Source: Rhizodiscina lignyota (Eukaryota). From it: DNA of 64,000 nt. Of the stretch, positions 6,986-38,920 are shown piece after piece (position 1 is the stretch's first letter; every line of letters starts with the position of its first letter). Below the pieces are notes generated by a model that saw only the letters and a list, made by a program, of their open reading frames with translations, was not told where the DNA came from and did no database searches. A program made the position numbers and the translations under genes. The DNA lies in assembly GCA_010015805.1 (NCBI GenBank), contig ML978123.1, forward strand, positions 1,674,001 to 1,738,000, written 5' to 3'.

Positions 6986-9201
6986 TTACCCAACTTGCGC
7001 TTGTTGGATATCCGACGACCACATCTGGTCAGCCCAATCCCACAGAAGTCCTTGTTGATTGTAATATGGATGCAAAGGCGTCGCCGAGCTTGGTCCTTGA
7101 ATCGGTGCTGTGTTATCCATAAGGGGATTCATCCAACCCAAATCGGGCTGTTCCGCCGATGACTGAGACTCGAATGGGGTAGTACTGACCCTGAAATCGG
7201 ACGCAGTTGGAATTGCTCCGCCCGCAGCTGTAGAAGGAATCTGTAGAGGTCCCCCCACTACATCCTGATCCTCCGTGTCGCTTGTGTCATGCTCGTCGAG
7301 GACTGCCGCAAGAGTGGCATGACTTGAAGTCAAAGGGCTCGTCTGCCCTTCTCTCGGAGACTCAACGTCACTTTGAGTCCCATCAAGATGTCGTATCATA
7401 TTTGCAATGTCCTTTTGCTATTTTCTCGAGTCAGCCTTAGTTGATATAGTTGTCGCTTAATTGAGAATGATAAGAGCGGAAGAGGTCTTTAGACGTACGA
7501 TGGTGATCATGGTTGGATACAGCTTTGAGAGTCTGCTCAAGGTTTCCGAAAATGCGCGCAGATAGCATAGCCCTAAGGCGGGATCCAGTCCGCTTGGAAG
7601 ACCTTTTGTGAAACGATGGCATGCATACAATATGGCGCATGAGCACTGATACAAGCATACTGCAATAGACGGGTCGCTAACGTAGACGTCTTTCACAATG
7701 TCATAAGTCGTCAAAACGAGCTCTCCAACAGCAATTGCATGATCGAGTCCTTTATCCTGACAGTATTTGCTGTATTCGCTGGATACGGCGTTAAGAACAG
7801 CAGGTTTCACAGCCTCTTTGAATCCAGGCGTGAGGATTCGGTAGAGATCACAGTGGCACTGATGCCACCATATGTGTAACATGATGAAATCGGTCCGTCT
7901 TGATGAAAATGCACGAACCTCAACGGCTCGAGGGCTGAAAAGAAATTCTTTCGGAAGGGTATCGAAGATTTCCGCAAGATCGTTCTCAAACTTTTCCATT
8001 TCATGCCTCGAATGCTCAGGATTGAGACCGTTGAGAATTATGTTTTTTGTGTATCTGAATAGTCGTTAGCTCGGGATACAAGGAGTTTCTGGTGTATGCA
8101 CTACCGTAATATCCGATGGCGGACGTCGATGACCCTCAAGATACAAGCTTGGGCAGAGAGAGAAACTTCTGAGGTTGAAGGACTCGCCAGGCTCCCCGTC
8201 TGGACTGGCGTATCAAACTCGAAATATCGTTCTCTACAGGGAAGCTGGACGTGGATGGTGTCTGCTTCACACAGAGTGTATTCAACCATGCCTCCGGCAC
8301 ACATTTTATCAAAGGCAAAAATTGACCACATCAGTCTCCGCCGGCTTTCTTGCGCCGTAAATGATGCGGCAGCATTTTCCCAGTGTAAGCGCATGGCATA
8401 CGCAGCACGTACAGCAATAGCCAGGAGGTTGAAAACTTTTCCAAACTGCTGATCCGCTGCTCGATCGAACAAGACAATCATTAATGTCTGCAGATGGCTT
8501 AAAGATATATGACCGATATTCTGTAAGACAGCAGTTTCCGCTCGGTCAGTCCACGAAGACTTGTAGTCGCTCGCTATCTCTTCGCCCAAGAATCGTGCCG
8601 AGGCTCCGCATATCGCCCATGTCAAATAAGATGGAACCTGCCCAGCCGACCATGCCTGCAAGAAGTCTGCTCGGTGCAGAAAGTTGAAGACGGGTATTGG
8701 ATAGATATACTCAAAGAACGCATCGATGAGCTGGCGGGCCAAGTTTGGTTCATTGCTCATCGTTCCATTGAGCGAAGGGTCTTGCATGGCTGGGGAAAGT
8801 GCTCCTGCGCTGCTTACCGGTCGTTCGACTGAAGCAGCTGAGGTTGATATGTCCATAGCAGGCGAATTGGTGGCTATCCGTGAGTCGTCCTCTGTAGACT
8901 GTCCCTGTTTTCTCTGCCGCTTTGAAGGAACGTATCTACACTCGATATCCCGCTCCCGACATCGGCGGCAACTTGGTTCTTCACCCGTGCATCGCGCCTT
9001 CTGGGCGTGGCAAGCAATACATGCTCGCCCAACGCGGATCTTCGTTACAGCAGGCCAGTCGCTCGGGGAAGGTGTTGTTGATCCAAAAGCTGCCGATCTT
9101 GATAATGAGCATGGAAAACCAAGGCGTGTACATGCAGCGCAGCCAGCAGAAGTAGTCCGGCACCGAACCTTTCTTTGGCGACACTGGATACATGCGGGCA
9201 T
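6986..9201 (-). CDS. Zn(II)2Cys6 transcription factor with two tandem binuclear clusters plus a fungal-specific TF domain
   Basis: CIQCRQRKVRC-X6-CAAC-X6-C and CIACHAQKARC-X6-CRRC-X6-C; FF..IYP..NFLHR and ESRRRLMWSIF..D motifs. Introns near 8103-8056 and 7498-7418. Start uncertain (possible upstream intron acceptor near 9245). Confidence 0.85.
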
Positions 9202-9896
9202 GGCAATTGACTTTCCGTGTCGCTTCAGATGGTCACGCCCCGAACTGATCGTTAGTGGTAAGCAGGAGCATCTCAATCAGCTTATTCTTTGCGATCTGCA
9301 AGATATGAGTACACGAAGTGTGCGTAAGACGGTGAGAAAGCGTTTAAAGTGAAGCTCATGCTTTCTGTGGAGTCCATAAGATATGACGAGTCTGTGCACG
9401 ATGGCGGAGGCGAGGACTCGCTTGCTCGAGAACGACCCCTGCCGTTTTCGGAACGCTAACGTGCGCCTAGCCGATTTCCGGCCTCCTTATTTGCCTGCTC
9501 TTCAGTCTTCTTCCTACTGTTGCTCGGCCGACAGCGCAGATAGATCATGTTTCTACGTATATGTTATTCAGGATCATGATATCTATGTACAAACCATCTT
9601 TTCATGAACTTAGAAAGTAGAATAGAAGTGGTAGCATCTCAAGATCGCCCTTCACGCATACCGTGCAGTACAATGATATTATTAAGTAGAAGCAAAACAC
9701 GATGCTCTTTAATCAAAACTTAGGAGACAATATACTAAAAATCTACCTATGACGATATTGCCGTGAGATCCACACCACTAAGTGGTTACGATTCGTGCAG
9801 ATATCCCGGCGGGAAGATTGCCGAGCTTATGTATGAAGTTCTGCACAATGCTCCTCCTGAACATCTTAACTTTATCATTCCCATTGCAAAAACAAG

Positions 9897-34112: not shown

Positions 34113-37100
34113 ATGTCCGACTTCCAGATGTTCCATGCCCTCGGGCAAGGCTCGAGTGATCCGAATCAACCTCAAACCGAACCTGCTGCACCTCAATTTC
34201 GCCCTCCGGTAGCTCCAAGTCCAGGCGGATATCAGCAAGCAGGTTCAAATGCCGGCGCGCCTCAGAGTCAATATGGAGGAACTCCGCAGTCAGGCTACTC
34301 GGGATATGGTGCTCCTGGACAAGATCAGGGATACTTTCCTCTGAACAGTGGGCAGCAGATGCAACAACAACCACAGGATGGCATGGCGGGTTTGACAGAA
34401 CAGCTGGGAAGCATGGCGATGGGTGGCACAGCAGGCCCACATAGGCCACGGAAGAAGGACAGACATGCCTACCATACACTTGATGCACCTACAGGGAGCT
34501 CACAAGCTTTCAATGGTGTACCTCAAGGAGCTGGTCCTCAATTTCTCAACCAAAATGGACCACAAAGTGCGCCTGGGACGCCAGGAATGGCACAGTTCCC
34601 AGGTGGAGCGAATGCGATGTATCAGCCTCCGAATGCTGCAACGCCGATGGGACATTCAGCGCATGGCGGAGCACCGGGCGCGCCAATGGCAGGCAGTACT
34701 GTCACATCCGCTCAAGGTCGGGTGGATCCAGAGCAGATACCGAGCGTGCCGCGCTCTCGAGATGGACCAGCACAATATTACCTCGAACATGTTTACCCAA
34801 CGATGGAGAGTCACCTCCCTCCTCCTGCCGCGGTCCCCTTTGTCGCTTATGATCAGGGCAACTCTTCCCCTCGATTTGCGCGTCTTTCCCTTAATAGCAT
34901 TCCCGCATCAAATGAACGGTTATTGCAGACTGGACTACCTCTTGGAATGGTATTGCAGCCATTAGCAAAACTCCAGGAAGGCGAGCAACCGATACCACTC
35001 CTGGATTTTGGAAATACGGGTCCGCCGCGATGCAACAGATGCAGAGCGTACATCAATCCGTTTATGACTTTCAGATCTGGTGGCAACAAATTCGTGTGCA
35101 ACATGTGCAGCTATCCGAATGACGTGTCGCCTGAATATTTTTCACCTACCGACCCATCTGGTGTGCGCGTGGACCGACTTCAGCGGCCAGAGTTAACCCT
35201 CGGAACTGTCGAATTCACCGTACCAAAAGAATACTGGGCTAAGGAGCCAGTTGGCATCAGATGGCTGTTTCTGATTGACGTTACCGCCGAGTCGTGCAAC
35301 AAGGGCTTTATGACCGGATTTTGCGAAGGCATCATGAACGCGTTGTACGGAAGTGATTCTGCGGCAGAAGACGAAACCAACGGAGAGAAGCAAACGTCAT
35401 TACCTCCGGGCTCTAAAGTGGGTATCGTCACGTACGACAAGGAAATTCACTTCTATAATCTCAGCGCCAGCCTTGACAAGGCTCAAATGATGGTCATGCC
35501 GGACATTGAGGATCCCTTTGTTCCTCTTAGTGATGGTCTCTTCGTAGATCCAGAAGAGTCGAAAGCAGTCATCACTTCGCTTTTAACCCAGTTACCGACT
35601 ATGTTTGCTGATGTAAAGAACCCGGAGCCTGCGCTGCTGCCGGCTTTACAGGCCGCTCTTGCTGCGCTTGATCACACCGGTGGGAAGATAGCGTGTGCAC
35701 TTTCCGCATTGCCGACCTGGGGTCCAGGTAGGCTATTTATGCGTGATGATCAGAAAATGCATGGGACCGATGCGGAGAAAAAGTTACTCACAACAGAGCA
35801 CCCTGGGTACAAGAAGCTGGGCGCTCAGTTGGTGGAGAAAGGAATTGGTGCCGATTTCTTCATGGCGGCGCCGAACGGCGGCTACTTGGACATTGCAACA
35901 ATAGGTACGCCACCAACTGCAAATCAAATAAAAGAAATGCTAACTTCCCTCCAGGCCATGTCTCTTCTATTAGCGGCGGCGAAGTGTACTACTATCCGAC
36001 ATTCCACAATCCACGGGATACTTTGAGATTATCGAAGGAAATCAGGCACACAGTGACTCGCGAAACAGGCTACCAAGCACTCATGAAAGTGCGATGCTCG
36101 AATGGTCTTCAAGTTGCCGCATATCACGGCAATTTCACTCATCATACATTTGGTGCCGATCTCGAATTTGGTTCGATTGATGCTGACAAGGCCATTGGAG
36201 TCATGTTCAGCTATGACGGCAAGCTGGATCCAAAGCTCGATGCACATTTCCAGGCTGCCTTGCTTTACACGAGTGCGGATGGGCAGCGGAGAGTACGCTG
36301 TATAAATTTGGTCGCAAGCGTGAGCGAAGCCATGGGCGATATCATGCGCCTCATCGACCAGGATGCCGTTGTTCATCTCATCGCCAAGGAGGCTGCTGCA
36401 CGGATCCCGGATCGAACACTGAAAGAAGTTAGAGCTGCCATTACTGAGAAGTCCATCGACGTCCTCGCGGGCTACAGAAAGAACAGCGCGGGTTCACATC
36501 CACCTGGGCAGCTTGTTCTGCCAGAAAACCTCAAAGAGTTCAGCATGTACACACTTGGCTTGCTGAAGTCGCGAGCTTTCAAGGGCGGTAGAGAACCTAT
36601 GGACAGGCGGGTTCATGATTTGCGCCTGATCAAGGGGATGGGCACAACTGAACTGTCGCTATACCTATACCCTCGCATATACTCGATCCACAATCTTGAT
36701 GAGGGCGATGGCTTTGCAAACGAGAATGGCCATCTAAGGATGCCTGCCGCTATACGTGCCTCCTTCTCTAAGGTAGAAGAAGGTGGCGCGTATATCGTCG
36801 ACAATGGACAAATCTGCCTATTATGGCTGCACGCGCAAGTTTCGCCGCATCTTTTGGAAGATTTATTCGGGCCAGGAATGAACAGCCTACAAGCGCTTGA
36901 TCCATTCTCATCCACGCTGCCCATACTGGAGACACATCTCAATGCCCAAGTTCGCAACATCTTGCAGTACCTCGAGACCAATAGAGGCAGCAAGGCGCTG
37001 ACAATACAGCTGGCGAGGCAAGGACTCGACGGAGCAGAGTTCGAGTTTGCGAGGCTGTTATATGAAGACCGGAACAACGAGGCGCAGAGCTATGTGGACT

Positions 37101-37282
37101 GGCTAGTGCATCTGCACCGCACTATACAGCTTGAGGAAAGTATACCCTACATTGAGGCAACCCTCCCATTCCAGGGCTGACTATATATACAGCTTTCCGG
37201 CCAGAGGAAGAAGGAAGAGACCGGGGATAGCAGCACCATGGCTGCGACTTTTGCGGGGCTTCGGACACCGTACTGGGGTTGA
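34113..37282 (+). CDS. COPII coat Sec24-family protein (Sec24C/D, Sfb3/Lst1-like)
   Basis: Low-complexity P/Q/G N-terminus, DQGNSSPRF.R, zinc finger PPRCNRCRAYINPF..CNMC, RPELTLGTVEF, vWA trunk FLIDVT, GQLVLPENLK and gelsolin-like domain. Intron 35905-35954; last exon 37193-37282. Confidence 0.93.
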
Positions 37283-37555
37283 GCGTTGAACAGCCGTTTT
37301 GGAGTACTTAGCATCTGTTGGCATGAGCGATATGATATCAAAACCGCGCTGCTTTACATATTAAGCCAGCTCTCTACCTCCATAATTTTGTTCCCTCAAA
37401 TCCCTGCCTTTCTGTGATTGGTCGAAGATTGCTCTTGGCACCTCGGCACGGAAGATCGAAACGCCGCGCACATCGTCGCTTAATTTCGACTTCGAACATC
37501 AGCCTTCAAAGTTTGCGACAGCAAAGGCATTTGACAACAACAGCCACTTGCCAAA

Positions 37556-38201
37556 ATGCCTACCAGATACACGAAGACGCGGAAACAGTAAGTGCCAAGT
37601 GCCCCTCTTCCTATTGCTCGATCATGCGGCCCAATTCATTGCATCGCGCAAACGCTCTTCGAGCAAACTCGCGCATCCAAACTTCACCCAGAAGAGGAAT
37701 TTCGATAACTAACATTATCACCACAGCCGCGGCCACGTCTCCGCCGGTCATGGACGTGTAGGCAAGCACAGAAAGCACCCCGGTGGTCGTGGTATGGCTG
37801 GTGGCCAGCACCACCACCGCACGAACGTCGACAAGTACCATCCGGGTTTCTTTGGCAAAGTCGGCATGCGATACTTCCACAAGCTGCAGAACCAATTCTG
37901 GAAGCCAGTCATCAACCTCGACAAGGTACGTTTCTATTTTATCTACGGCGTTCTATTGGTACTGACGAAGGTGGTGCCACAGCTCTGGTCCCTCGTCCCC
38001 GTCGAGAAGCGTGACGAATACCTCAAGAACAAATCCGCAGACAAAGCTCCCGTCCTTGACCTCCTCCCAATGGGCTACTCCAAGGTCCTCGGCAAGGGCC
38101 GCATCCCCGAAGTCCCGATAATTGTTCGCGCACGGTACTTCTCGAAGGACGCCGAGAAGAAGATCAAGGAGGCTGGTGGCATCGTTCAGCTGGTTGCATA
38201 A
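37556..38201 (+). CDS. RPL28: 60S ribosomal protein uL15 (L28/L27a)
   Basis: [60 protein letters not shown]...KVLGKG...[10 protein letters not shown]. Introns ~37588-37725 and ~37926-37982. Confidence 0.97.
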
Positions 38202-38920
38202 ACATTCTGTTCGCTTCACGGGTCCTGATAACAACCGGCGCGCTTGGGGTTACATATGCATTGCATGGAAAAGTATGAAGGGAGGCCGAGACCGGCGACT
38301 CAGCGTGGTAGCTGAGGAATGCGACTTGTTTCTGAGATAGAAGAATACAAGCCATTCCTGAACAAACCGATTCCCGACATGTAAGCGTGGCATGTCGAAT
38401 AAGACACTGCCGCAGAACAAGATATTCCTCCCCTGCAAACAAGGAGCGAGTTATAAGGTAGGTTTACTGTAAGAATGCGCGCCTTCACTTGAATTCTTTG
38501 TTCCACGCCTGGAGTAGGAAACATTATAATTCTTCCCGAAGCTCACCGTTAGTGCTTTTACCATCCCCGAGCCACCCTCAATGACCAACCCACCTCGATT
38601 TCTGTACCGCAGGCTCAGTGTAGCCCGTGGACAAGTCAATGACAAGGAAGCCAAGGAATGGCAGGTTTGATATGAGTTTTGTGACGGCAACGAAGAGCGA
38701 TCAGTTGCGCGCGAGGTGAGAAGTTTGCATTTGTGGTGGTTTGGAGACATGCTCCAATAAGGCTAGCACACTGAGGCTCTGGAATTTCCATTAAATTAAT
38801 CTATTCCGTAATGTTTCGTGAATAAGAACGCCATTGACCCATCGTGAAACCTTGATATTTCCACCATCTTGCTCGTGCCGCCTTCCTCTGTTACGCATAC
38901 GCGGCTTGCGCCAGTGTGAC

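Follow-up and report, generated by a model that had tools for sequence, protein, structure and literature searches.

The last intron of a Sec24-family gene in the window (the whole 64,000-nucleotide stretch of DNA analysed here) lies at 37136..37192 of the plus strand and has GA-AG ends. Judged from the DNA, the chances are about even that it is a rare U2-type GA-AG intron spliced at 37135^37193. In the proposed course of events a single T-to-A transversion at 37137 would have turned a consensus-type GTAAGT into GAAAGT in this lineage, with U1 presumably still pairing in the old register. The last intron would then be excised at 37135^37193, probably with lower efficiency than a GT intron. The result would be the normal protein of 1020 residues, with tail-less proteins as by-products of transcripts left unspliced or cleaved at +5. 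The case concerns one base of one gene, and would be a further instance of a known rarity, with an unusually clear ancestry and no new mechanism.

The Sec24-family gene (34113-37282) comprises three exons with 1020 codons in all, and its features given below are all on the plus strand. Exon 1 (34113..35904, ATG at 34113) contains 597 codons plus 1 base and, compared with an annotated orthologue of 1020 residues (P0003), covers residues 1-596 from the first Met at 66% identity. Intron 1 (35905..35954) has 50 nt, is in phase 1 and belongs to the GT-AG type, with the signals GTACGC ... TGCTAAC ... CCAG; once it is removed, the reading frame carries on into exon 2 (35955..37135), whose 3' end encodes ..VHLHRTIQLE. 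Exon 3 (37193..37282) contains 29 codons, which form a conserved C-terminal tail, and the stop TGA (37280-37282). Its product is LSGQRKKEETGDSSTMAATFAGLRTPYWG, followed by the stop (protein P0001).

The five Sec24 domains were identified by Pfam above the curated cut-offs and in their usual order: zinc finger (PF04810) and trunk (PF04811) in exon 1, and beta-sandwich (PF08033), helical (PF04815) and gelsolin (PF00626) in exon 2. The product is a Sec24 rather than a Sec23, all 14 of the 14 solved sequences matched at E <= 1e-5 being Sec24 proteins. Among the solved sequences human Sec24C gave the best match (E 1.3e-54), and the human proteins Sec24A-D (E 1e-50 to 1e-54) scored better than yeast Sec24 (E 1e-33). 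Several NCBI matches to exon 2 bear the name 'Sec23p-Sfb3p heterodimer component', and by the names of its closest matches the gene appears to be an Sfb3/Lst1-like member of the Sec24 family. The host is a Dothideomycete-like fungus.

The alignments to the solved chains of human Sec24A-D stop at residues 389-391 of the 393-residue exon-2 query, where the chains end. As the solved Sec24 chains stop at QLE, the known fold is complete at this point and the 29-residue tail lies outside it; the window protein thus differs from human Sec24A-D and yeast Sec24 in having this tail past the end of the solved core. The tail is common to the fungal homologues retrieved, mostly Pezizomycotina among those whose records bear names. 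The original prediction had named the gene as SEC24 and LSGQRKKEE... as resembling the C-terminus of filamentous-fungal Sec24C/D. The Pfam domains together with the solved Sec24 matches bear out the former, and exon 3, being the conserved tail of the orthologues, bears out the latter.

The last intron has 57 nt, is in phase 0 and reads GAAAGT ... GCTGAC ... TACAG. The last base of the Glu codon GAG of ..IQLE is 37135, and the donor region (37133..37143) is GAG|GAAAGTAT. It matches the fully U1-complementary consensus CAG|GTAAGTAT, as quoted in the available parts of PMC5714493 and PMC6280755, at 9/11 positions, with mismatches (counted by eye) at -3 and +2 only. The branch-site motif GCTGAC spans 37176..37181; its branch A, base 37180, precedes the 3' end by 12 nt. 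The segment has the sequence marks of a GA-AG intron, beginning with G, closing with AG and carrying a branch motif at the usual distance. It also has the context reported for GA donors that work, in which AG closes the exon and A stands at +3 (GAG|GAAAGT). The other signals are intact: the exon-end AG, A-A-G-T-A-T at +3 to +8, CTGAC and YAG.

Among the donor and acceptor pairs tried, the conserved tail was regained in full by 37135^37193 alone. A candidate cryptic donor GT was identified at 37140..37141 (+5/+6, GTATAC); paired with the acceptor at 37192, it would remove 53 nt and shift the frame, which then stops 13 residues past QLE, and its combination with any AG within 37150-37260 never restored the full tail. 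The in-frame pair 37139^37218 was rejected, as it would lose the conserved LSGQRKKEE and its acceptor lies among purine-rich sequence that lacks a branch motif. Donors of U12-type (minor) introns are of the [AG]TATCCTT type, a consensus to which both GAAAGTAT (37136) and GTATACCC (37140) fail to conform. When the segment is left unspliced, the frame continues after QLE as ESIPYIEATLPFQG (14 residues) and runs into a TGA (37178-37180) that stands directly before CTA (37181-37183). This TGA is the sole in-frame stop in the 57-nt segment, and the TGA CTA (37178..37183) overlaps the branch-site motif. The coordinates and signals in the original prediction (..IQLE at 37135, 57 nt, GAAAGT, GCTGAC, TACAG), its out-of-frame nearby GT and its in-frame segment with a lone TGA-CTA stop were all confirmed in the sequence, and the GA-AG join that it proposed is the one just described. 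With GT replaced by GA at the donor, the conserved tail needs GA-AG splicing. If the intron is spliced, gene callers restricted to GT and GC donors will mis-model the C-terminus of this gene.

Scanning metagenome contigs yielded 80 loci (L001-L080), with the anchor motif in 80/80, and exon 3 was located by pattern in 69 of them. The intron lies exactly after QLE in 37/69 loci (28 distinct sequences), and 32/69 are intronless, QLE passing straight into LxGQRK. The loci without an exon 3 match (11/80) comprise nine that begin with GT after the anchor and two that continue in frame. Since it stands exactly at the intron position of the relatives, the 57-nt segment is more than a chance pattern; the comparison of loci marks it as an ancestral phase-0 intron that some lineages have and others lack. 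The orthologous last introns are GT-AG in all 28 distinct sequences, a GA donor being found in 0/28. Their length is 48-72 nt in 26/28, and a CTRAY motif was identified 10-17 nt from the 3' end in 26/28 (12 nt in the window). In L012 and L015 the last intron is expanded, to 346 and 399 nt.

An RNA contig of a relative (run X2) comprises 3328 nt and matches the exons at roughly 80-88% identity. This contig is without intron 1, with exactly 50 letters absent (a skip of 156, with 106 letters between). After 37120 it has 30 letters whose by-eye translation is HIQLE and then directly LAGQR, that is, the spliced junction.

Two protein searches were performed with exon 2 as the query, one for longer proteins (best 120 of 899 matches at E <= 0.001) and one for proteins of near length (best 120 of 508 matches at E <= 1e-50); pooled, they comprise 238 distinct homologues among the matches listed. 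Spliced or intronless models account for 85 of the 238 listed, with QLE followed by L[AS]GQRKK... and a median tail of 29 residues, and 74 of these 85 tails finish with a hydrophobic residue, Trp and up to 4 further residues. The largest group (141/238) is formed by intron-ignoring ORF calls with Val (GTN) after QLE, and Ala (GCN, a GC donor) follows QLE in 5/238. The others have Leu (two, intronless and missed by the pattern), Pro (one) or Thr (one) at this position, end at QLE (one) or are without the anchor motif (two). Glu after QLE was identified in 0/238 of the listed homologues. The five with Ala, also intron-ignoring ORF calls, are P0051, P0072, P0160, P0161 and P0207; they suggest GC-AG donors at the same last intron in several lineages, so that donor position +2 would have changed more than once.

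The closest relatives among the matches listed are P0123 (94% identity), P0122 (88%), P0143 (87%) and P0002 (86%). All four have Val-Ser after QLE, which fits GTNAGY and so indicates a GT donor, as read from the read-through residues only, whereas the window has Glu-Ser from GAAAGT. In the same four the read-through enters exon 3 in a different frame, which means that none of these introns has a length divisible by 3. Val-Ser in the closest listed relatives and the count of 0/238 for Glu argue that the GA is a young derived T-to-A change at +2 (base 37137), which would have occurred after the split from the 94%-identical relative.

Splicing of the last intron as a working GA-AG intron is favoured by a branch site, an acceptor and an exon 3 with its stop that are all undamaged, by the near-complete U1 match of the donor region and by the GC donor indicated at the same site in five listed relatives. 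Set against this, GA is a weak donor, and cleavage at +5 is here a frameshift. The absence of GA from the 28 introns and the 238 listed homologues gives no sign of long-term selection, and an intact exon 3 is equally expected from a very recent harmful mutation. The window was also screened for donors of the form G-N-N-N-G-N with a branch motif, YAG, a length of 40-130 nt and open frames on both sides. The counts were similar for each donor type (GT 40, GC 32, GA 47, GG 41); therefore this crude screen cannot separate introns from chance, and so nothing points to a general GA tolerance in the genome. The single other GAAAGT candidate, at 8795-8858 (+), was rejected for being antisense to a minus-strand Zn2Cys6 transcription-factor gene.

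Natural GA-AG introns of the U2 type have the same G at +1, A at +2 and AG acceptor as the window intron. They amount to about 0.01% of annotated plant introns according to the available part of PMC10668435, and to 14 among 222,263 human introns in that of PMC5714493. Working GA donors of a copepod, Eurytemora affinis, and of a tunicate, Oikopleura dioica, have the same exon-end AG and A at +3 as the window donor, although these animals have thousands of GA introns and the window one site (PMC5714493 and PMC7072748, in excerpt). The SYMRK gene of Trema/Parasponia is described in the available text of PMC10668435 as fully functional after a single change to GA. In intron 12 of Trema orientalis SYMRK, as in the window, a single base changed in an otherwise good donor; however, that GA arose from GC and the window GA apparently from GT, and function was kept in SYMRK whereas the window intron is known from DNA and we infer its splicing (same source, in part). 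In Fusarium graminearum, also a filamentous ascomycete, GA-AG is among the non-canonical junctions identified by RNA-seq (PMC3577648, as excerpted). The human FGFR1-3 GA site (Brackenridge 2003, as cited in the text at hand) is an alternative donor aided by a conserved element and by a GT close at hand.

The closest counterpart in sequence is a reporter in human cells. As short introns of fungi are recognised through intron definition, the transfer from a human reporter is uncertain. The reporter site CAG|NNAAGTAT (Erkelenz 2018; the available sections of PMC6280755 serve for this and the following statements on it) has nearly the same 11 nt as the window donor and the same GT at +5/+6, and it depends on SR-protein and TIA1 enhancers, whose carry-over to fungi is uncertain. 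A near-identical site, CAG|GAAAGTAT, was used at +1 with exonic enhancer help. The donors ranked GC > TT > AT > GA > GG > CT; the GA site required an enhancer, and with both enhancers the +5 GT was cleaved as well (PMC6280755). If the window intron is spliced, it is a clean natural experiment, with a change at +2 only in a conserved housekeeping gene whose ancestral state is known, and it would show the reach of full U1 complementarity for a GA donor in a filamentous ascomycete.

The main alternative, possible but held at distinctly less than an even chance, is that the donor has been disabled by a recent loss-of-function T-to-A change in this isolate or lineage, leaving a protein without the conserved 29-residue tail. 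The transcript would then follow one of two routes, either retention of the intron, with an end 14 residues past QLE, or cleavage at +5, with a frameshift and 13 residues. Consistent with this are the weakness of GA in the human reporter, its dependence on enhancers and its shift to +5 (PMC6280755, in the sections available), the GT present at +5/+6 of the window intron and the shortness of both alternative products, which end near the normal stop. A GA unique among the relatives sampled is also what a young variant should be. Moreover, the tail lies outside the solved Sec24 fold, and its loss would be tolerated because it is an addition to a core fold that finishes at QLE. However, the tail is strongly conserved across classes, as seen in the 85 listed homologues and the hydrophobic-Trp motif of 74 of them, so its loss should cost fitness. 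No decay was identified in exon 3, its stop, the branch site or the acceptor, and the context of reported working GA donors has been kept. Should splicing fail, the isolate would be a natural mutant whose Sfb3/Lst1-like adaptor has no tail, and would offer a handle on the role of the conserved C-terminal tail.

Both the spliced and the disabled reading take the GA at 37136-37137 as real. It is very improbable that the true base at 37137 is T in most nuclei, and that GA comes from a sequencing error, an error in the consensus or a culture subclone. What is seen, a donor that fits the consensus perfectly but for one base, is how an error of this kind would look. No run listed as containing this DNA is catalogued as RNA. 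A Logan contig of the public run X1, the one run found to contain the stretch, with 81,142 bases and a mean word depth of 155, is genomic, being long and spanning introns and intergenic DNA. Compared with 35000-38300 (3301 bases) it has 0 differences and reproduces the GA. The base given at 37137 by the original prediction was hence found again, GA and not GT, in a separate contig. A random read error would not survive in 3301 identical bases of a separate assembly at this depth, and a slip of the assembler or of the consensus is ruled out as the source of the GA. X1 is possibly the same sample as the window assembly and not an independent isolate; it may even be the same read set, in which case it is not independent at the read level. 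Contigs also lose rare variants, and a minority T allele at 37137 is compatible with the X1 contig.

Two further readings give the 57-nt segment a role of its own. Highly doubtful is a newly arisen tunable switch, in which partial GA splicing would produce tail-bearing and tail-less forms and UGA-CUA readthrough a third, with the tail restored after an insert of 19 residues. The least credible of all is the regulated C-terminal switch of a COPII adaptor put forward in the original prediction, with a spliced, a truncated and a TGA-CTA readthrough product, the last with a 19-residue insert. It drew on the length of 57 nt, divisible by 3, and on the sole in-frame stop being TGA followed by CTA; UGA CU(A) is leaky in fungi and animals according to the available part of PMC4207609, which agrees with the published context that had been invoked. 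The orthologous introns, in which a GA donor, a length of 3n and TGACTA occur in 0/28, 10/28 and 1/28, do not sustain a conserved three-isoform switch: all 28 have GT donors, their lengths leave remainders 0, 1 and 2 in 10, 9 and 9 cases (chance level), and the single TGACTA, in L076, is out of frame there. The introns of the closest listed relatives shift the frame, TGAC belongs to the CTGAC branch motif found in many orthologous introns, and the GA, being one young change, leaves no time for a designed arrangement. The refuting condition set out in the original prediction, GT donors throughout the orthologues with neither length nor TGACTA conserved, thus applies to the switch, while the GA base is unaffected by it.

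The TGA CTA of the window is the same as in the peroxisomal readthrough isoforms of Ustilago and human (Stiebler 2014, PMC4207609, in the portion available). In those isoforms the stop is the normal one of the mRNA, and context and extension are conserved; the window TGA CTA, in contrast, lies inside an intron, where it coincides with the branch site, and lacks conservation. On these comparisons, both the TGA CTA and the in-frame length are best read as coincidences of this single intron. Slight readthrough could occur if unspliced RNA is translated, and nothing suggests selection for it.

Other elements were identified in the neighbourhood and elsewhere in the window. Rfam families at gathering thresholds gave 0 matches across 1-64000. 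The Zn2Cys6 fungal transcription-factor gene lies at 8101-9276 on the minus strand and contains PF00172 in two stretches and PF04082. The next gene downstream of the Sec24-family gene encodes ribosomal protein L27A/uL15 (37713-38198, plus strand, PF00828), with an apparent internal intron in a stop-free frame and further 5' exon(s). A 192-nt contig of X2, of depth 2.6, has 0 differences to 38024-38215 in this ribosomal protein gene, unlike the X2 Sec24 contig, in which about 15% of positions differ. Such identity means either that the gene is extremely conserved or that X2 contains traces of the organism of the window. Finally, P0120 is a model of 1204 residues filed under Carpinus fangiana, a tree, and is 75% identical to the Sec24 exon. 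It extends beyond the tail into an apparent neighbouring ribosomal protein gene in another frame, and looks like a fungal contig within a plant assembly, its gene model being a fusion.
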